Assembly (NCBI RefSeq): GCF_000143415.4
Contig: NW_003314448.1
Coordinates: 21,231 to 85,230 of the forward strand
Reading direction: 5' to 3'
DNA length: 64,000 nucleotides
DNA from: Selaginella moellendorffii
Lineage: Eukaryota > Plantae > Lycopodiophyta
Shown: piece after piece, positions 57 through 12,012 of the stretch
Layout of the letters: each line of letters begins with the position of its first letter
Position numbering within the stretch: position 1 is the first letter of the stretch
Program-made: the position numbers and the translations under genes
Notes under the pieces: generated by a model
What the model was told of the DNA's origin: nothing
Databases searched by the model: none
What the model saw: the letters and a program-made list of their open reading frames with translations, nothing else

Positions 57-108
57 ACTACACCCGGCTGATGAGTCCCAAAAAGGACGAAACCGGTCTC
101 GGGTTGTC
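57..108 (+). ncRNA. Type I hammerhead ribozyme (minimal, PLE-associated)
   Basis: CCCGG(63-67)-CUGAUGA(68-74)-GUCC-CAAAAA-GGAC(75-88, helix II)-GAAA(89-92)-C-CG-GUC(96-98)-UCGGG(99-103, pairs with 63-67). Full catalytic core; predicted cleavage after C98; helix III is the short palindrome ACCGGU. Confidence 0.93.
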
Positions 109-135: not shown

Positions 136-1953
136 AATGAAAATTCATTCCCTTGCCTCCTCTACTTGCTCTCGATCATGCCGTCTCGACAACGGCACAC
201 GGAGAATGTGGATTGCACAAAGTGGTGCCGCAATCTCGCCGGATTGCAGCAAAAGCCCTAAGTTGTTTGAGGAGAGAGCTCGAAGGCGCTAGAGAGAGAG
301 TGTGAGAAAGAGGGAGGGAGCGAGCGTCCAGGGCGGCACAAGCATCGCAGACCGCGGCAGCAACACATGGAGCTCGTCTCCCTCCTCTTTCTCCTCTTTT
401 CTCTCGCTCTCTGTCGTTTTTATCGATATCTCCCAAACGGCTGGGAGAAACCTCGATTCCTTCGACAGGGGGCTTCTAGGAGTGTAGATTCTCATCCTCC
501 TAGAAGGCCGCGGCGAGATCTGCCACGGATCTGGAGATCTCGCTGGCCCTAGGTCGCTGCTGTTTTTAGGGTTCTTCGGCGGCGGCTAGGGTTTTTCGGG
601 GCTTAGAGATTTGGAGGAGTGGAGAGGACAGCTAGGAACACCACGGCTGCAGCAGCTGGACGCTCTCCTCTCCTCCTCTTCTTTTTTCGCTTCTCATGGT
701 TTCAAGGTTTTTGGGAGCTCATAACTCCTGAACGGCTTGGAATTTTTCCACAAAAATTCACAGGGGGATAGCTGGGAGGGAGCCTCACACCCTCCCAGAA
801 GCGCAGGCAAAAATTCTTCACGGTCTCAGAGTTCTCACCTGCCCTAATTCGTGGCTAGGGTTAGGGTTCTTGGCTGGCTTTTGCCCTAACTACGGTTAGG
901 GCAGGACTTAGGGTGGCAGTGGGATCTCCGATCTGGCCACTCTAAGTGTCAGGGATCTTCGTTGCATGTGGTTGGCACGGCAGCAACATGGTGGAAACGC
1001 GACGGTTGCTGGTCTCGCAGCTTCGAGTGGGATTTCTCGCCTTAGGTCGGGCCATGCAAGGTGGTGACTGAGGTACGGAGAGCGTGAAGCTGCATGTGTC
1101 GGAAGTTCTTGGCGACTTGAGTCGTGGAAACACGACCAAGTCATGGGAACTTTGTTGACTGGTGGAGAACAGTTCGGGACGACATCCCGACATAGCGAAG
1201 TGTCCGCGGTGGATGGACGTGGAAGACACTATGGGCGCATTTTTGGATCTAGTGACAGGGAAGTGCTGTCACAAAGGGGGCCAGTGGCGGATGGCCGAGT
1301 TGGTTTGCTCGCGGAGGGGATCCCACATGGTTCTTGCTTCAGGGCTAGTCCTTTGAGGAGGTTCGCGGAGGCTTGCAAGTCTTGTGATTGTCGCGATGCC
1401 GGCAACGGGGGCTCGTATATCATTGAAGGGGGCCAGCGCACTTGTCTAGTGTGGGAGGCAAGGTAGCACGCTCTAGTCTAGAGCTGGAGGAGGCTCACAC
1501 CTCGCTTGTTCTACGCCTTGGAGTTTGTTCGCAATGGGCACCGACTTAGTGCTGGAAGTACACTGGGGAGCTTGTGCAGTGGAGTCACCTTGGAGGCGAG
1601 TGACCCATGAGCAACGCCGGGTCATCGTGCTCAAGTTGGACCGCTTGGCTGCGACGACGTCGAGCTAGATCGACATGGTGTTTGTCTGGCTTGTCATCAT
1701 TGTGACCGAGTGGAGGAGTGGCAAGGCGAAGCAGGTGGCTTCAAGCTCCGCGGTGGAGTCACCTGGGAGGTGGACGGCCCAAGAGCAGCGCCGGGCGTTC
1801 GCGCTCATAGTTTCACTAGTTTCTTCGAGAGTGCGCTCTCAATGTTGTTTTGATCCCTTTGGGATTGGGGTAATGTACATATATGTTTAGCAATCTCGCC
1901 GGATTGCAACACCACGGGGTGTCTTTGACCCTAAACGCCTAAACGCGCCTAAA
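136..1953 (+). mobile_element. Distal copy of the 3' non-coding region of the telomeric Penelope-like element
   Basis: Near-identical direct repeat of 7586-9402 (offset ~7450; the small ORFs in both copies translate almost identically). Ends in the same GTCTTTGA-CCCTAAA-CGCCTAAA-CGCGCCTAAA terminus. Confidence 0.85.
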
Positions 1954-2095
1954 CTCTAAACCTAAACCCTAAACCCTAAACCCTAAACGCGCCTAAACCC
2001 TAAACCCTAAACCCTAAACCTAAACCCTAAACCCTAAACCCGTAAACCCTAACCCCTAAACCCTAAACCCTAAACCTAAACCCTAAACCCTAAAA
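1929..2095 (+). repeat. Plant-type telomeric repeat tract (CCCTAAA)n with variants
   Basis: About 20 CCCTAAA/CCTAAA units read directly. Confidence 0.97.
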
Positions 2096-2472: not shown

Positions 2473-2655
2473 CAACGTGGATCTACACTCTCACCAAATG
2501 ACTTCATTATGACTCACCAAATGGCTGAAACCCTTCACCAAATGGCTGATCGTATGTTGCCACGTAGAATTAATCATCCATGTATATATATTTCTTCTTA
2601 GGTATCTCAATCCCTTACACTTTCTGCTCGCTGTGACGGTCTGTGAGTAGTAGGC

Positions 2656-5364
2656 ATGCAAGCTTCTAGCCCTTTTTCTTCATCTTCATCGCCACTTAGT
2701 CATAGTTTAAGTGCTGGAGTGCCCTTGAATCTCATCTGTTCTATCAACGCTGCTGCAGATCAGGAGATACCAACGAATTCCCGGTCCCCCACACCGGAAT
2801 TCTCACCTCCTGAGTCAAGGCAGAACACACACGACACGCTCGTCTTGCCTTCCCAACAGACACTTGTCTTGCCTTCTCAGCGTGCACAAGCTCCTCAATC
2901 TCATCGTGGACTGTGGCCGAATTTCTCTCACCGGGACGTTCGCTCATACTTCATCCGGGACTCTGGTCCAGGACCGATTGAGATTGAAGACACAGCTGCA
3001 ACTTCTGGAGTAATGCATGACCAGTGTTCTCTTCCTCTTATGGCAAATGCTCCTCCATCACCTCCTCACATTGCTTCATCATCTCGTCAAACACCAAATC
3101 CTCCACCATCCAATTCCATTCATGGATCAGCCCCTATTCACGGATTTACACTCTCATCTCGTATCATACCATCTTCTTCCTCCACACCAAATACAACGCT
3201 GTCTTCCATACCAATTACAACGCTTACTACCATACAAACGTCCTGCTCTGCACCAGTTCCAACACCACTACCACGCACTCTACCACCTCAAACGTCAGTT
3301 CCAACACCACTACCACGCACTCTACCACCTCAAACGTCAGTTCCAACACCACTACCACGCACTCTACCACCTCAAACGTCAGTTCCAACACCACTACCAC
3401 GCACTCTACCACCTCAAACGTCAGTATATGCACTCACGACCGAGTCTCCTCCAGCTTCTCCTGAATTCTTGAGGGAACTGGCACTTACAGAGGAACGACA
3501 CTTGGCTGAACGACACTTGGCTTCACGACCTGTCTCAGCACCACTGTCAACGGCTACATGGTCCACTGTAGCATCAGTGACAGATATGCAGCCCACTCTG
3601 CCTCCAGCAACTGCCCCAGTAGCAACTATGCCGCCTAGGAGATCCGTTGTGCCACCTGTGACCACCTCTACATCCCCTATGGCTGTGCCTACAACAAACT
3701 CACTCTCACCACATGCACCAGCATATACACCCATGTCTACGCTTGCATGTACCTCTGTGCTCACAACTACAACCATCCATACACCTACTCCATCGACAAC
3801 TAGCCCTCCTCTCTTTGCTACAACACCTCATACTCCACCAACTTTCTCCATCTCGCCTCCTGTTCCATTAACCTTCTCCACCACACCACCTTTCTCCATG
3901 GCCTCAACTTTACCAACACTCTTTTCATCAACAACTTCAATCCCACCACCTTTTTCATCCCCAGCTGTGCCATCATCTACTCCATTCTCTGGATTGGTAG
4001 ACCTCTTCACAGTGTTGCAGAATAGTGCTGGCATTTCTGCTACTGGAAACACTCTTCCACAGCAGTTGCCACCTTTCCTTGCCCCTGGCAATGCCCTCAC
4101 TAGCTCCTCGACTGAGGGACTTGGTAGGCTTGATGAGGCTCTTTCTGCCATCCTTGAATGCTCGATCAAGGAATTCATGAACGAGCTCAAGTCTCTAAAT
4201 CAAGCTCACAAGGCTGTGAAGAGATTGACTCAGCTCCGTGATAAAAAGCAGTTCCCTCAAGACCTTCGCATTCGTGTGCCAAAGCTTGAGGTGACCTCTC
4301 ACGGTCAGGAACTTCTTGATACCAGCATCAAAGCAATCCACGAACAATACTTGAAGGACCTTCTTGATTCTCTGCTCAAGGCACGAGAGGCTGAGGCTGC
4401 TACCCTTGCGGATCTCATCAACCATGGACTCTCTCAACGTTTTAATGATCGAATGGATGATTTTGTTCACTGTGCTTTGCAGGCTTGTGGCAATGCACAA
4501 CGAGAGGCTGTCACACATACTCTCAATGCCCGCAAGCATCAGTTGATAGCTGAATACCAACGTGCGACTGCAATTGGAGCAGTGGCATATGGAGTTGAGG
4601 AGAGCAAAAAGGAAAATGCTCGCAAGCAAAGGGAAGCTGCAGAGGATGCTGCACGAGCCAAGGCGGAGACACTGCCCAAGGAAGACACTGTTAAGATGCT
4701 TGTCCAGAGCTGCTTTGACAAGATGTGGAAGGAGAGGGAGCGTGGAATTCCGAGACAACACCACGAAGATGCTGGCAGAGGCACCAGATCACAAGGCAAA
4801 CGACAGCAAAGGACGGATACCTCACTCCACATACGTGAAGCAGGCTCTTCAAAGACACGCAAGGTTTCTCTCCCCAGTGGTGAACGTGACGTTACCCATG
4901 GACGGCAGGGAAACGAGCAGGGGCGGAATGTGGTTACTGGGACTCCTCCCACCCATTCCGATGCCCCGGGTTTTTCTTCAAGGGGTCCCTTGCACCGGCA
5001 ATCTCCAACCGTGCTTGGTTCCCAGCCAGCCATGACTGGCAGAGGTGGCCAACGCCAGTCTCGAGGAAACGGTCGACCCCCACGGTCCCAACCGAACTGG
5101 CCAAGCGGCCGAGGGCGCCAGACTACACCACGACCTCCTCCAGCAGCCCAACAACGCCAGCCAACTCAGAACCAGAAACCACCTTCACCTCCCAGAGGAC
5201 AAGAGATGCAGCCCTCACAGCACCACAACAACACCCCACTCCACGAACGAACCCAACGCTATGGCTTGGGAAGAAACTCGCCTCCACAGCAACGCCCGCA
5301 CTCTCCAGTTACGGCAGTGCCTGTGGACAGAAAAGGCAAGGCAAAAGTTTCTGGCTACCTTTGA
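2656..5364 (+). CDS. PLE ORF1 protein, 902 aa: P/S/T-rich N-half, predicted coiled-coil centre, basic R/G/Q-rich tail
   Basis: Long intact ORF with an upstream TATATATA (~2583). Helical/charged segment (IKEFMNELKSLNQAHKAVKRLTQL...EESKKENARKQREAAEDAARAKAE). Lies directly upstream of and overlaps the RT frame. Confidence 0.85.
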   Translation: MQASSPFSSSSSPLSHSLSAGVPLNLICSINAAADQEIPTNSRSPTPEFSPPESRQNTHDTLVLPSQQTLVLPSQRAQAPQSHRGLWPNFSHRDVRSYFIRDSGPGPIEIEDTAATSGVMHDQCSLPLMANAPPSPPHIASSSRQTPNPPPSNSIHGSAPIHGFTLSSRIIPSSSSTPNTTLSSIPITTLTTIQTSCSAPVPTPLPRTLPPQTSVPTPLPRTLPPQTSVPTPLPRTLPPQTSVPTPLPRTLPPQTSVYALTTESPPASPEFLRELALTEERHLAERHLASRPVSAPLSTATWSTVASVTDMQPTLPPATAPVATMPPRRSVVPPVTTSTSPMAVPTTNSLSPHAPAYTPMSTLACTSVLTTTTIHTPTPSTTSPPLFATTPHTPPTFSISPPVPLTFSTTPPFSMASTLPTLFSSTTSIPPPFSSPAVPSSTPFSGLVDLFTVLQNSAGISATGNTLPQQLPPFLAPGNALTSSSTEGLGRLDEALSAILECSIKEFMNELKSLNQAHKAVKRLTQLRDKKQFPQDLRIRVPKLEVTSHGQELLDTSIKAIHEQYLKDLLDSLLKAREAEAATLADLINHGLSQRFNDRMDDFVHCALQACGNAQREAVTHTLNARKHQLIAEYQRATAIGAVAYGVEESKKENARKQREAAEDAARAKAETLPKEDTVKMLVQSCFDKMWKERERGIPRQHHEDAGRGTRSQGKRQQRTDTSLHIREAGSSKTRKVSLPSGERDVTHGRQGNEQGRNVVTGTPPTHSDAPGFSSRGPLHRQSPTVLGSQPAMTGRGGQRQSRGNGRPPRSQPNWPSGRGRQTTPRPPPAAQQRQPTQNQKPPSPPRGQEMQPSQHHNNTPLHERTQRYGLGRNSPPQQRPHSPVTAVPVDRKGKAKVSGYL
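3254..3425 (+). repeat. 42-bp coding tandem repeat x4 (VPTPLPRTLPPQTS)
   Basis: Four perfect copies in ORF1. Confidence 0.95.
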
Positions 5365-7208
5365 TTGCCCCGCATGAAGCTTTACTTCATTTTGCCGGCA
5401 ATCAAAAAGTTTCCCAGCTAGAAAATAGAGTGGAGATTGGTGCTGTTCACAATTTGTCTTCTCGCATGTTGAGTGCCGCTGAAAAGCGCCTCCTTGCTCT
5501 TGGGCTCTCATTCATTCCTAATCCAGTGCCTCTCACGGCCAAAAAGATTATGGAATGCTTAGATGACTTTCAATGCTCAGTCCGTCTTCGTAATTCGTTT
5601 AAGGACAGCAACAGTCTTATACCAGAGTTTCGGGTTCCCAACCCAAACTTTGATCCTCCCCCTGCTTCCTGGCACATGGAGTCACGAGTTGCCCGCATTC
5701 GAGAGCACCTTCTCCAACGTCTTTCCTGTTGTAAAAGACCTCGATCTTTTCTAAGAGGATGGAGACGTGATGCAGTCCTTGCGCTGCGACACGATCATAG
5801 TATTGTGATTAAGCCAGCCGACAAAAACCTTGGCGTAGTTGTTCTGGACCGCACGTGGTACATTCAAGAGGCTATGCGCCAACTCAATGATCCTCTTGTC
5901 TACAAGAGAGTTGAGTCGATTCCACATCAACCCATGCATGAGCGCCTCCTCGAACTTCTCCTGAAGTATAAATCTTGCTCATGGCTGGACAAGAACACAG
6001 CCAAGTACCTCATCACTTTGCCCTCACCTCCACGTAAAGCTTGTTTGTTGTATTTTCTTCCAAAAATACACAAGCAGCCAATTCGTGGGAGACCAATTGC
6101 TAGCTATGTTGGCTACATTTGGGAGCCACTTGCAAAATGGCTCCACCGCCAACTTTTTGGCATTCTCCTCCAACAGGAAACCTTTCTTATGGACTCCCAC
6201 ACTCTCCTTCATGATCTTCATAAACAACAGCTCCCAAAAGACTGCCTCCTCTTCACTTTTGATGTGGAGTCGCTCTACCCGAGCATTTCCACACGTGAAG
6301 GGCTCTATCGCCTCCATAAATTTGTATATAGAAATTTTGGAGATTCGATGCAAGCACGCTTTATCATGGCTGCTGCAGGACTCATCCTTGAACACAATTA
6401 TGTTGAGTTCGATGGGAGTTATTTCCTTCAAATCCGAGGCACTGCTATGGGGTCAAACTTTGCTGTGGTGTATGCTTGCCTTTTTCTTTGTTCCCTCGAG
6501 GACGAATTTAAGGCCACCTCTTCTAAATGGCCAATATATCTTAAGAGATATATTGACGATGGTGTTGGAATTTGGGATGGATCAAAAGAGAGCTTGGAAT
6601 GCTGGTTGGCTAGCTATGGAAGCCTCTGCAATTCTATAAAGATCACCTCAGTGATCTCATTTGAATCTATGGATATTCTAGACATCCATTTTTTCAAAGG
6701 CCCACGTTTTGAGAAATGCAGGTGCCTAGACTCCACCACCTTTCAAAAGCCACTAAATGCATACCAATATCTTCCATGGAACTCAACGCATCCTCGACAC
6801 CAAAAGATTGCCTTCATTCGTGCTGAACTTCGGCGTTACCTCCTACGAGAGAGTAACCCTGAGAGCTTCTGTGCAATTCGCAAGCTTTTCTATACTCGTC
6901 TCCATGCACGTGGATACCCAAGAGCCTTCCTTATTGAAGCTTTCCGGACAATCCATTATACGGACCGAGATAATGTGCTCTACTCTCCATCACGCAAATC
7001 CAGTAGCAATAGTCTACAGGCCCCCCTCATTTTCAAGCTGCCTTATACTCTCCATAGTGCGGCACTTGATGTGGGGAACACCCTAAACCCTAAACAGGTG
7101 ATTTCTGAAGTTCCATCAGACTCACTCCTCAGAGTGATCACATGCTGGACACGGTCCCCAAACCTTGCTTCCCACTTGGTTTCAGCGAGACTCCCACCAT
7201 ATGGATAA
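4890..7208 (+). CDS. Penelope-like reverse transcriptase without endonuclease (frame open from 4890; ORF track start 5361 is a TTG)
   Basis: PLE RT motifs IKPADKNLGVVVL, LYFLPKIHK..IRGRPI, FTFDVESLYPSI, GTAMGSNFA, RYIDD, FQKP...QYLPWNSTHP and RGYP. Protein ends shortly after the thumb with no GIY-YIG motif. Confidence 0.93.
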   Translation, partial: RYPWTAGKRAGAECGYWDSSHPFRCPGFFFKGSLAPAISNRAWFPASHDWQRWPTPVSRKRSTPTVPTELAKRPRAPDYTTTSSSSPTTPANSEPETTFTSQRTRDAALTAPQQHPTPRTNPTLWLGKKLASTATPALSSYGSACGQKRQGKSFWLPLIAPHEALLHFAGNQKVSQLENRVEIGAVHNLSSRMLSAAEKRLLALGLSFIPNPVPLTAKKIMECLDDFQCSVRLRNSFKDSNSLIPEFRVPNPNFDPPPASWHMESRVARIREHLLQRLSCCKRPRSFLRGWRRDAVLALRHDHSIVIKPADKNLGVVVLDRTWYIQEAMRQLNDPLVYKRVESIPHQPMHERLLELLLKYKSCSWLDKNTAKYLITLPSPPRKACLLYFLPKIHKQPIRGRPIASYVGYIWEPLAKWLHRQLFGILLQQETFLMDSHTLLHDLHKQQLPKDCLLFTFDVESLYPSISTREGLYRLHKFVYRNFGDSMQARFIMAAAGLILEHNYVEFDGSYFLQIRGTAMGSNFAVVYACLFLCSLEDEFKATSSKWPIYLKRYIDDGVGIWDGSKESLECWLASYGSLCNSIKITSVISFESMDILDIHFFKGPRFEKCRCLDSTTFQKPLNAYQYLPWNSTHPRHQKIAFIRAELRRYLLRESNPESFCAIRKLFYTRLHARGYPRAFLIEAFRTIHYTDRDNVLYSPSRKSSSNSLQAPLIFKLPYTLHSAALDVGNTLNPKQVISEVPSDSLLRVITCWTRSPNLASHLVSARLPPYG
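4908..4989 (+). promoter_or_regulatory. Predicted -1 programmed ribosomal frameshift signal (slippery heptamer plus H-type pseudoknot)
   Basis: G GGA AAC in the ORF1 frame, just after the last -1-frame stop (4887-4889). 5-nt spacer; stem 4920-4934/4951-4967; loop GGGACUCCU (4939-4947) complementary to AGGGGUCCC (4981-4989). Confidence 0.8.
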
Positions 7209-7227: not shown

Positions 7228-7550
7228 AAGCTACCTCTTGCAAACTCAGAGTGGAATATTCCTGGAATATTCTGATGCTTTGAAATATTTTTTGAGGTTA
7301 GCTATTAAACATGATGAGGAACAATTAGGACGTGCTGCATGGCTGATATCCATCACCATCACCGTTCACAATATACTGCTATGAATAAGCTACCTCTTGC
7401 AAAGTCGGAGTGGAATATTCCTGGAATATTCTGATGCTTTGAAATAATTTTTGAGGTTGGCTATTAAACATGATAAGGAACAATTAGGACGTGCTGCATG
7501 GCTGATATCCATCACCATCACCGTTCACAATATACTGCTATGAATAAGCT
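7228..7550 (+). repeat. 159-bp tandem duplication in the 3' UTR of the PLE
   Basis: AAGCTACCTCTTGCAAA... starts at 7228 and again at 7387; few substitutions. Confidence 0.92.
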
Positions 7551-9377
7551 TCACACCACTAAGCTTGTTTATTTCCTGACCACTAAATGAAAATTCACTC
7601 CCTCGCCTCCTCTACTTGCTCTCGATCACGCCGTTTCGACAACGGCACACGGAGAATGTGGATTGCACAAAGTGGTGCCGCGATCTCGCCGGATTGCAAA
7701 AAAGCCCTAAGTTGTTTGAGGAGAGAGCTCGAAGGCGCTAGAGAGAGAGTGTGAGAAAGAGGGAGGGAGCGAGCGTCCAGGGCGGCACAAGCATCGCAGA
7801 CCGCGGCAGCAACACACGGAGCTCGTCTCCCTCCTCTTTCTCCTCTTTTCTCTCGCTCTCTGTCGTTTTTATCGATATCTCCCAAACGGCTGGGAGAAAC
7901 CTCGATTCCTTCGACGGGGGGCTTCTAGGAGTGTAGATTCTCATCCTCCTAGAAGGCCGCGGCGAGATCTGCCACGGATCTGGAGATCTCGCTGGCCCTA
8001 GGTCGCTGCTGTTTTTAGGGTTCTTCGGCGGCGGCTAGGGTTTTTCGGGGCTTAGAGATTTGGAGGAGTGGAGAGGACAGCTAGGAACACCACGGCTGCA
8101 GCAGCTGGACGCTCTCCTCTCCTCCTCTTCTTTTTTCGCTTCTCATGGTTTCAAGTTTTTTGGGAGCTCATAACTCCTGAACGGCTTGGAATTTTTCCAC
8201 AAAAATTCACAGGGGGATAGCTGGGAGGGAGCCTCACACCCTCCCAGAAGCGCAGGCAAAAATTCTTCACGGTCTCAGAGTTCTCACCTGCCCTAATTCG
8301 TGGCTAGGGTTAGGGTTCTTGGCTGGCTTTTGCCCTAACTACGGTTAGGGCAGGACTTAGGGTGGCAGTGGGATCTCCGATCTGGCCACTCTAAGTGTCA
8401 GGGATCTTCGTTGCATGTGGTTGGCACGGCAGCAACATGGTGGAAACGCGACGGTTGCTGGTCTCGCAGCTTCGAGTGGGATTTCTCGCCTTAGGTCGGG
8501 CCATGCAAGGTGGTGACTGAGGTACGGAGAGCGTGAAGCTGCATGTGTCGGAAGTTCTTGGCGACTTGAGTCGTGGAAACACGACCAAGTCATGGGAACT
8601 TTGTTGACTGGTGGAGAACAGTTCGGGACGACATCCCGACATAGCGAAGTGTCCGCGGTGGATGGACGTGGAAGACACTATGGGCGCATTTTTGGATCTA
8701 GTGACAGGGAAGTGCTGTCACAAAGGGGGCCAGTGGCGGATGGCCGAGTTGGTTTGCTCGCGGAGGGGATCCCACATGGTTCTTGCTTCAGGGCTAGTCC
8801 TTTGAGGAGGTTCGCGGAGGCTTGCAAGTCTTGTGATTGTCGCGATGCCGGCAACGGGGGCTCGTATATCATTGAAGGGGGCCAGCGCACTTGTCTAGTG
8901 TGGGAGGCAAGGTAGCACGCTCTAGTCTAGAGCTGGAGGAGGCTCACACCTCGCTTGTTCTACGCCTTGGAGTTTGTTCGCAATGGGCACCGACTTAGTG
9001 CTGGAAGTACACTGGGGAGCTTGTGCAGTGGAGTCACCTTGGAGGCGAGTGACCCATGAGCAACGCCGGGTCATCGTGCTCAAGTTGGACCGCTTGGCTG
9101 CGACGACGTCGAGCTAGATCGACATGGTGTTCGTCTGGCTTGTCATCATTGTGACCGAGTGGAGGAGTGGCAAGGCGAAGCAGGTGGCTTCAAGCTCCGC
9201 GGTGGAGTCACCTGGGAGGTGGACGGCCCAAGAGCAGCGCCGGGCGTTCGCGCTCATAGTTTCACTAGTTTCTTCGAGAGTGCGCTCTCAATGTTGTTTT
9301 GATCCCTTTGGGATTGGGGTAATGTACATATATGTTTAGCGATCTCGCCGGATTGCAGCACCGCGGGGTGTCTTTGA

Positions 9378-9818
<441 letters not shown>

Positions 9819-11064
9819 TGTAAGCAACTAATTTTTCCTAGTCCTAGTCTTTGCCAGAATCGTTGATGACTTTTTGAGGATGGTCTTCAATGTTTTGTTC
9901 GTTGCTTCTACTTGACTGTTGCCTTGAGGATAGTGTCGATAATGATTTTGCGGTAGAAATTGGTGAAGCTAAGGCAAACCTGAATGTCTGACATTGATTG
10001 TGAAGGCTCCCATTCGAGAATAGTCCTAACTTTGGCAGGATTCATTGTGATACCTGTAAGCGACTAATTTTTCCATTTTACTTTAGTCACTTAACCACAC
10101 CTCCGACCACTTGGAGGAGTCTCATTCACCACCTCCATAAGTCTAATTCAGGACTTGGGACTTGTTAGCCCCGAGAATGGCATCTATGCCACTCAATATT
10201 TGCACTTGGTCCAAGTGCTCCATGTGTCCGATCCCATGACCGACACTCAAAGGTACCACCGACATGGCAGCCTGTTATGCTAACGCCATGCCCAATCACC
10301 TTTGCCACACTGGTAGTCCAATACCACTTGCATCACAATCTTGGCTCCCCAAGACTAGGCAATCCATCCATGAGTGGTCATCTCAGATCCACTCCTTAGC
10401 ATCCTTAGGATGCCCACCGACAAGGGGAATAGCCTTCCCCAATATCCCTCTGTCAGTCTCCCCTAAGTCCCTTTCTGCCTCTGACCATGTTTGCCAACAC
10501 TGCCACTGGATCGAGGCCCACAGCCCCGACCACTAAGTCCCACGGTCCTCTGGGACTTCCTCACCACACGACTGTGTCCTTGGTCACTACCCTAGAGGAC
10601 TGCTCCTCTTCCTTTCCACAGTCTGGGCCTTTGGGACAACATTTCGGAACACCGTGGCCTTACGCGAGCCACCTGGGTACTCTCCCCGCCTTCTGCCCTT
10701 GGGTGCTCTAGCCATGGGCTTAGAGCGAGGTTCCGTTGAGCCACGCCTGGTATCCAAGTAGGTAGTGCCACCCACACTTGGACTGGGAGCATCGGCCAGT
10801 CGATCTCCCGGGGGAACTAGAACCGGCTCTTGAACACTTCACCAAGCTACCCCGCTTGTCGGTCCATGTTCACTCTAGTCTTGGACTTCCCAGTGGTCAG
10901 CTCATCACCCAACACTGGGTCTGGCCTTCCTGGGCCAAACTGGCTCCACTGGGCTCCAACCCCCACACTCTCCTTACTATACTTTTGGAACCCCCCGCAG
11001 CCCCCCCCCCCCCCCCCCTGGGGGACGATCGCTTTGGGCTTTCACCCAACTGCCTGTATTAGTA

Positions 11065-11713
11065 TTCGGACTCGGACTCGGGCTCGAACTCGGACTCGGA
11101 CTCGGTCTCGGTCTTGGTTTCGGACTCGGACTCGGTCTCGGTCTCGACTTCGGCCTCGGTCTCGGTCTCGACTTCGGCCTCGGTCTCGGTCTCGACTTCG
11201 GCCTCGGTCTCGGTCTCGACTTCGGCCTCAGTCTCGGTCTCGGTCTCGTGTCCATCTCGGACTCCATCTCGGACTCCATCTCGGGTCCATCTCGGGTCCA
11301 TCTCGGACTCCATCTCGGGTCCATCTCGGGTCCATCTCGGACTCCATCTCGGACTCCATCTTGGGTCCATCTCGGACTCCATCTCGGGTCCATCTCAGAC
11401 TCCATCTCGGGTCCATCTCAGACTCCATCTCGGGTCCATCTCGGGTCCATCTTGGACTCCATCTCGGACTCCATCTCGGGTCCATCTCGGACTCCATCTC
11501 GGGTCCATCTCGGACTCCATCTCGGGTCCATCTCGGACTCCATCTCGGGTCCATCTCGGTTCCATCTCGGACTCCATCTCGGACTCCATCTCGGATCCAT
11601 CTCGGACTCCATCTCGGGTCCATCTCGGACTCCATCTCGGACTCCATCTCGGGTCCATCTCGGGTCCAACTCGGACTCCATCTCGGACTCCATCTTGGGT
11701 CCATCTCGGGTCC
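11065..11713. repeat. Mosaic minisatellite: (TCGGAC/TCGGTC)n followed by (TCCATCTCGGG / TCCATCTCGGAC)n
   Basis: Direct reading; produces repetitive ORFs in all frames. Confidence 0.92.
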
Positions 11714-12012
11714 CTTTTGGAGCCTCGCTTATTGCTCGTTTCGTGCTCATTCCTCGAGCACTTCGTTAGGAGTTCCACTCCCGCTCTCGACCTTTCAAGT
11801 TGGAGCTTTTGGCCCAAACGTGTTACACTCGTTTGGCTTTCGCTTTGGCCACTACCACGTGGCACCCTTCCGGCTCCACTTTGGGGCCTAGGGATTTTGT
11901 GTCTCACAACTCCACCACCCATAGACGAAGTTCGATGTCCTCATCAAACGGTAAACCCTTTTATAAAGTAACACCCATATGTATTACCGTTTCCATCCTT
12001 GGCCCCCGGCCA

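Follow-up and report, generated by a model that had tools for sequence, protein, structure and literature searches.

A predicted -1 frameshift signal links ORF1 to the reverse transcriptase of an endonuclease-less Penelope-like element in Selaginella moellendorffii

We analysed 64,000 nucleotides (nt) of the Selaginella moellendorffii genome (GCF_000143415.4, contig NW_003314448.1, positions 21,231-85,230, forward strand; this whole stretch is hereafter the window, and its own numbering is used throughout), which carry an endonuclease-less (EN-minus) Penelope-like element (PLE), a retroelement of the telomere type. The reverse transcriptase (RT) of this element is encoded in the -1 frame relative to an upstream open reading frame (ORF), ORF1, and the overlap between the two points to programmed -1 frameshifting at a G_GGA_AAC heptamer, which would yield an ORF1-RT fusion of 1517 amino acids (aa). 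Judging from the sequence, we put the probability of this reading at about 0.85. An earlier note on the same DNA (the original prediction) had proposed a fusion of about 1500 aa, and comparison strongly supports a shift at this heptamer, since in a second Selaginella family the RT frame is conserved from the heptamer onwards, the first AUG of the frame is not conserved, and the layout recurs among relatives, with a heptamer of this kind in 21 of 34 clusters.

The coding layout of the window is clear-cut. The -1 frame contains 34 stops within 2646-4889, the final two at 4881 and 4887, and none within 4890-7205; the RT frame is stop-free over 4890-7208 and overlaps ORF1 by 472 nt plus the stop codon, in agreement with the overlap of roughly 470 nt claimed before. 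The frame had also been said to lack an early ATG, and the first one was indeed found only at 5466. Conserved RT-frame motifs sit upstream of this AUG and upstream of the ORF1 stop, and Met 5466 itself lies downstream of the conserved HNLS and FWxP. A shift at the heptamer would join 753 residues to 764, compared with 902 aa for ORF1 alone. Three in-phase heptamers of the form X_XXY_YYZ occur in the 901 codons of ORF1, two of them within 85 nt of where the overlap begins (Table 1). The first of these two, G_GGA_AAC, has the position just past the last -1 stop and the phase that had been assigned to it, and is ranked among the most shift-prone heptamers in excerpts of PMC5009743, in which Penelope is unmentioned. 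The second, G_GGU_UUU, likewise lies where it was predicted and in the ORF1 phase, but no structure was detected 3' of it (z +0.8, 48/60 shuffles; z +0.2 in another fold test), and it was rejected as the main shift site because of this lack of downstream structure.

A 5-nt spacer, a bulged stem 1 and a 9-bp stem 2 formed with 4981-4989 had been predicted 3' of the first heptamer, and all of them were recovered at their coordinates. Stem 1 has a folding energy of -24.4 kcal/mol (z -3.3, none of 200 shuffles as good), and in our own search for H-type pseudoknots the combination of stems 1 and 2 (-20.2) reached z -4.0, a value equalled by 0/60 shuffles. No Rfam family matches the frameshift cassette. 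Separately, a decayed copy of the region (runs X2 and X3, over 4796-5026) carries deletions at 4894 (10 nt) and at 4929 (6 nt, within stem 1).

A profile of the ORF1 core, built from 10 sequences, matched 71 proteins; some of these belong to a second S. moellendorffii family, the P0141 cluster, whose ORF1 core is 35% identical to that of the window. This family was compared as protein only, through the automated model P0195, in which a predicted splice leads into the RT frame, so that the family's version of this frame is visible throughout the cassette. Compared with the RT frame of the window, 1/10 codons are identical ahead of the heptamer, 21/30 in the cassette itself and 11/20 past it, and the identical positions include W, F and P residues outside the RNA structure. 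At the window's first RT-frame AUG the second family has Thr. Its residues permit both heptamers (G-K-R fits G_GGA_AAC, and G-F-F-F is kept at the second) and most of stem 1, whose pairs are kept or replaceable; in stem 2, seven of the nine pairs are compatible and one adjacent pair could be gained. A diverged contig (X1 record 2, from contigs of four runs compared with 4300-6200) matches only 4935-4985 and one RT motif, with the spacing between the two matches altered by 33 nt, that is, by whole codons; by eye, its loose letters beside 4935 and 4985 give the same residues as P0195 has there.

Further relatives came from metagenomes, where the best 80 matches provided 77 loci, or 78 with the window. 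Twenty-two were dropped (seven without an RT N-terminus, five open at the contig start, five with a broken RT and five with <150 nt upstream), and the remaining 56, grouped at 70% RT identity, fell into 34 clusters, the window included. In 24 clusters a long ORF1 precedes the RT, which is read in the -1 frame relative to it; three were scored as +1, three have one fused ORF and four lack a long upstream ORF. An in-phase X_XXA_AAC is present in the overlap of 21 of the 24 -1 clusters. Counts of XXXAAAC by phase were 31/5/3, and the in-phase motif occurred 31 times in the overlaps (8,352 nt), compared with 7 times in the body of ORF1 (26,277 nt). Even where overlaps are just 13-16 nt, as in some members of one 14-member cluster, A_AAA_AAC is still present. 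Downstream structure with z <= -2 was found at 13/21 sites, compared with 5/84 control positions. The clusters scored as +1 are doubtful: L076 is anchored on a second element, and its mate L045 has the -1 layout with no strict heptamer; in L041 and L072 both frames contain long ORFs. No relative turned up in the viral contigs searched.

Conservation and covariation among family members had been named in the original prediction as a check, and the in-phase heptamers are accompanied by a covarying H-type pseudoknot in a distant 7-member subgroup. In this structure 10/19 pairs are changed on both sides, three of them in stem 2 (0/500 shuffles), and slid controls fall far below its covariation score; the model was drawn from the same sequences that scored it, and these code in two frames. 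A set of 13 close relatives, by comparison, shares a conserved hairpin in which 5/10 pairs are compensated, with second stems that are weak and shifting. Stimulators therefore differ between lineages.

In the mechanism that we propose, ribosomes translating ORF1 would pause at the structure 5 nt downstream, with GGA-AAC in their decoding sites; the stimulator would be stem 1, probably as part of an H-type pseudoknot that stem 2 completes. Tandem slippage at G_GGA_AAC would move some ribosomes back by one base, and these would go on in the RT frame to 7208, while the remaining ribosomes would read ORF1 to its end and release the 902-aa product, basic tail included. The RT would be made solely as the ORF1-RT fusion, presumably a minor product beside abundant ORF1 protein. 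The window signal is very probably a real -1 frameshift signal of the functional type.

A number of observations weigh against this interpretation. The strict XXXAAAC is absent from 3/24 -1 clusters (L034 and L035 have C_GGA_AAC, L061 has nothing), and among five genome_contigs loci, counted apart, both -1 loci (L078 and L079) are without it. No significant structure was found at 8/21 sites, including that of L001, which is among the closest relatives and has the heptamers. In the structure count, the criterion by which one of several nearby sites was picked had been fixed after earlier site results were viewed, and the clusters are kin, so that nominal p-values overstate their independence. 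In half of the relatives (12/24) an in-frame AUG precedes HNLS, and the N-termini of the fused ORFs do not match the ORF1 profile. In the second family, the heptamer is allowed by the protein sequence rather than read from DNA, and 2/9 stem 2 pairs are broken, leaving a potential tandem G.A that, treated as a 2x2 loop, has -2.6 kcal/mol. Finally, the pseudoknot is not a clear energy minimum: the nested minimum-energy fold from 4915 has -37.4 kcal/mol and pairs 4917-4923 with 4987-4993 in place of stem 2.

The last point bears on a variant of the frameshift reading, in which the shift is real and is stimulated by stem 1 alone or by the nested fold. This variant is possible, although we consider it on balance unlikely. 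The pseudoknot is estimated at about -32.7 kcal/mol (a rough figure, using Dirks-Pierce-type penalties), which is above the nested fold from 4915, and the close relatives show a hairpin rather than a stable second stem. However, the nested helix requires 4917-4919, bases that the ribosome would cover, and the best nested fold starting at 4920 reaches just -30.9. The two folds are thus close in energy, and energy alone cannot decide between them. The nested helix also loses 3/7 pairs in the second family, and other relatives show a covarying stem 2.

A different way to fuse the two ORFs would be removal of an intron, for example one with a donor at 4742 and an acceptor at 4908 (167 nt), the heptamer being a by-product of coding and acceptor context. 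This GT-AG pair weighs against frameshifting, as it gives an in-frame join and the conservation in the second family would likewise start there. An AG is present at this position in all four G_GGA_AAC sites checked (window, L001, L003 and L027), the automated gene models P0195 and P0153 link the ORFs through predicted introns, and PLEs are known to retain introns (PMC4209133). The splice sites are weak, however, with a donor of C|GTGGAA and an acceptor tract of 9/20 pyrimidines, four of them T. Twenty first sites of relatives were listed, three of them G_GGA_AAC; at the other 17, which are A_AAA_AAC or U_UUA_AAC, an intron would need an AG here in 15/17, and 16/17 have no AG within 3 nt. P0195 and P0141 use the same donor with different acceptors, as expected of guessed models, and an intron explains neither the phase bias nor the structure 5-9 nt downstream. 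We regard splicing as improbable.

Separate translation of the RT, with ribosomes re-initiating or initiating internally at Met 5466 or using a non-AUG start, appears less probable still. It agrees with the 580-aa products starting at Met 5466 that NCBI annotates (P0199 and P0200), and with the AUGs before HNLS in half of the relatives. In the other 12/24, however, the first AUG lies 6-290 codons past the conserved HNLS; Met 5466 follows both HNLS and FWxP and is replaced in the second family, and separate initiation leaves RT-frame conservation 500 nt upstream unexplained. Least credible is the chance splitting of a once-fused ORF by a frameshift mutation in the window copy: three clusters of relatives do have one fused ORF, but ORF1 stays open for 149 codons beyond the shift site, another annotated copy (P0121) has the same ORF1 end, and recurrence of the -1 layout in 24/34 clusters across families already largely refutes it.

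The core of the ORF1 protein, at about 4123-4761, is modelled as all-helical (predicted local distance difference test score, pLDDT, 88) and is homologous among relatives; the profile also matches ORF1 of the distant loci L045, L049, L053, L056 and L062. A Foldseek search with the core model gave no match at E <= 0.001, structure comparison returned only generic helical bundles (best Z 10.0, root-mean-square deviation 3.9, 99 aligned) with no function assigned, and a Pfam scan of ORF1 gave sub-threshold helical matches only, with no Gag family match. The tail past the shift site, which the fusion would lack, had been described as basic and holds 22 K/R against 5 D/E in 149 aa; it could bind RNA. 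Tail length ranges from 1 to 245 aa among relatives, and the tail is thus not essential in all of them. As a hint only, a K/G/L-N-G/E motif is present in 14/24 ORF1 protein tails, with 5.3 expected, in a set of 24 picked by hand with codons unseen.

The assignment of the element rests on ORF2, which has the marks of a Penelope-like RT (DKN motif, YIDD, RT core and thumb) and in which domain and motif analysis found no GIY-YIG endonuclease domain. Its nearest named RT relatives, from Cryptomeria, Ginkgo and Closterium (~35-47% identity), are also its neighbours in a quick tree, in which GIY-YIG-bearing matches form a separate branch; this tree, made without the RT of the second Selaginella family or named Coprina/Athena references, gives a rough placement only. 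The window RT falls in one cluster with the 580-aa S. moellendorffii models, and a protein of this species is 99% identical to the C-terminal half of the window's ORF1. A pair of 1.96-kb direct repeats encloses the coding region, and CCCTAAA arrays are found at 1967-2174. Terminal repeats, telomeric repeats and a hammerhead are published marks of EN-minus PLEs (PMC8557442, PMC4209133). The hammerhead scored by Rfam precedes the first terminal repeat, and none was scored 3' of the RT; the scored one probably lies at the 3' end of the preceding element unit. The hammerhead look-alikes at 7308 and 7467 have an altered core. The window copy may depend on the neighbouring unit or be a chimera with it.

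Table 1. Coordinates of the element's features and of the predicted frameshift signal in the window
Feature	Position	Strand	Remarks
Type I hammerhead ribozyme	62..104	+	Rfam RF00163, 40.5 bits, E 7.8e-7
Terminal direct repeat (pLTR-like), copy 1	136..2092	+	CCCTAAA repeats at end; 98% identical to 7586-9536
ORF1, 902 aa from first ATG 2656 (putative start)	2656..5364 (open from 2647)	+	P/T/S-rich N-terminal part, all-helical core, basic low-complexity tail
Last -1-frame stop (TGA) before the RT frame opens	4887..4889	+	
ORF2 (-1 frame), Penelope-like RT, no GIY-YIG	4890..7208	+	FWxP 5349, HNLS 5448, DKN 5811, YIDD 6549, thumb
G_GGA_AAC, predicted -1 shift site, ORF1 phase	4908..4914	+	18 nt past last -1 stop
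Stem 1 of predicted stimulator	4920..4967	+	14 bp with bulges, 5-nt spacer after heptamer
Predicted stem 2	4939..4947 with 4981..4989	+	9 bp, would close H-type pseudoknot
G_GGU_UUU, second heptamer in ORF1 phase	4968..4974	+	within pseudoknot loop 3
Two 159-nt tandem repeats 3' of the RT	7228..7545	+	one hammerhead-like look-alike in each (7308, 7467), unscored by Rfam
Terminal direct repeat, copy 2	7586..9536	+	ends in CCCTAAA-type telomeric repeats (about 9397-9533)

Frameshifting with a pseudoknot is already known in the PLE class, and the window signal reveals no new mechanism; what is new is the plant site and the breadth of the signal. Such a signal is reported for Athena/Terminons of bdelloid rotifers (Arkhipova 2017). 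According to the legend of Fig. 1 in PMC8557442, ORF1 of EN-minus PLEs of animals may be set apart by a pseudoknot-bearing frameshift. The two-ORF elements of that paper resemble the window element in their coiled-coil-like ORF1, in the frameshift and pseudoknot (both predicted in the window) that precede the PLE RT, and in a 3' end with reverse-complement telomeric repeats and a hammerhead, the latter placed in the window at the probable end of the preceding unit. The figure, however, covers animal PLE types with a legend that gives no site, sequence or test, whereas the window element comes from a land plant and its signal has been traced across 34 clusters; the word "pseudoknot" is absent from the supplement text of the same paper. 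No description of frameshifting in plant or Coprina elements was found in the literature, although two primary papers (Gladyshev and Arkhipova 2007; Arkhipova 2017) and the supplements to them, which lay outside that search, may hold the site, and the excerpts of PMC3846280 and PMC5408684 contain nothing further on frameshifting in these elements. Viral and long terminal repeat (LTR) retrotransposon gag-pol signals, as in retroviruses and coronaviruses, differ in that the window's ORF1 has no Gag match and its RT belongs to the telomerase-related PLE class.

Two Coprina-type Repbase entries, Sm1 and Sm2, come from S. moellendorffii (PMC13159263), and hammerheads of Selaginella Coprina-type elements are described in PMC4209133. 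The species, the presence of two families, the EN-minus RT, the type I hammerhead and the telomeric repeats are all shared, and the window element and the second family are probably Sm1/Sm2, a match made from these traits rather than from the reference sequences. Coprina is typically told from Athena by its single ORF (PMC13159263), unlike the window element, which has two overlapping ORFs and a frameshift signal. In the same paper, however, Coprina-1_Alen also has two ORFs, which makes the single-ORF criterion a weak one.

A broader proposal, to which we give even odds, is that -1 frameshifting of the viral type is the ancestral and usual route of RT expression in EN-minus PLEs, the sister group of telomerase: a homologous helical ORF1 would be fused to the RT via X_XXA_AAC and a hairpin or pseudoknot, in hosts ranging from lycophytes and probably conifers to microbial eukaryotes far removed from them, and in-frame fusion would have replaced this route repeatedly. 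If this is true, defining Coprina by a single ORF is wrong, as are the annotated starts of the RT, and the working enzyme has a large N-terminal domain. In the plant, the probable full-length telomerase-related RT would have 1517 aa where annotation gives 580 aa, a form relevant to reconstituting telomere-targeted retrotransposition. Signals for -1 frameshifting are common across the clade, which supplies about 20 natural stimulators with covariation, and the short cassette is directly testable in wheat-germ extract.

Other observations concern annotation, relatives and surroundings. The NCBI models XP_024519178.1 and XP_024523773.1 of the window family begin the RT at an internal Met, 3' of conserved motifs, and are probably mis-started. 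EN-minus RT relatives from Cryptomeria and Ginkgo (42-47% identical) and Cryptomeria ORF1 homologues are represented by P0003, P0009, P0012, P0034, P0140, P0149 and P0153; such elements appear to exist in gymnosperms, and the P-K-N-G motifs of the Cryptomeria ORF1 homologues would suit A_AAA_AAC. The fused single ORFs among the metagenomic loci (L031, L032 and L046) carry the RT at the C-terminus and measure 1091-1545 aa. In L020 (405-417) the slippery site is one base off that of its cluster mates and the change creates an RT-frame stop, so that this is probably a dead copy. The PLE-like RT contigs L078-L082, from prokaryotic genome bins, are probably eukaryotic contamination, and a copia-like RT fragment was seen by eye upstream in ORF1 of L018 (445-900).

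Two CCCTAAA units lie inside the 3' end of the window's RT ORF (7081-7094), and in a contig from another organism (run X12) telomeric repeats are joined straight to position 5322, which looks like a truncated copy beside a telomere array. After the telomeric repeats of the second terminal repeat, an LTR-retrotransposon RT fragment was noted by eye at 9536-9820. Unrelated to the frameshift signal are long simple-repeat arrays at 11040-11750 and a cytochrome P450 gene fragment at 55427-56620 (E 1.3e-31).

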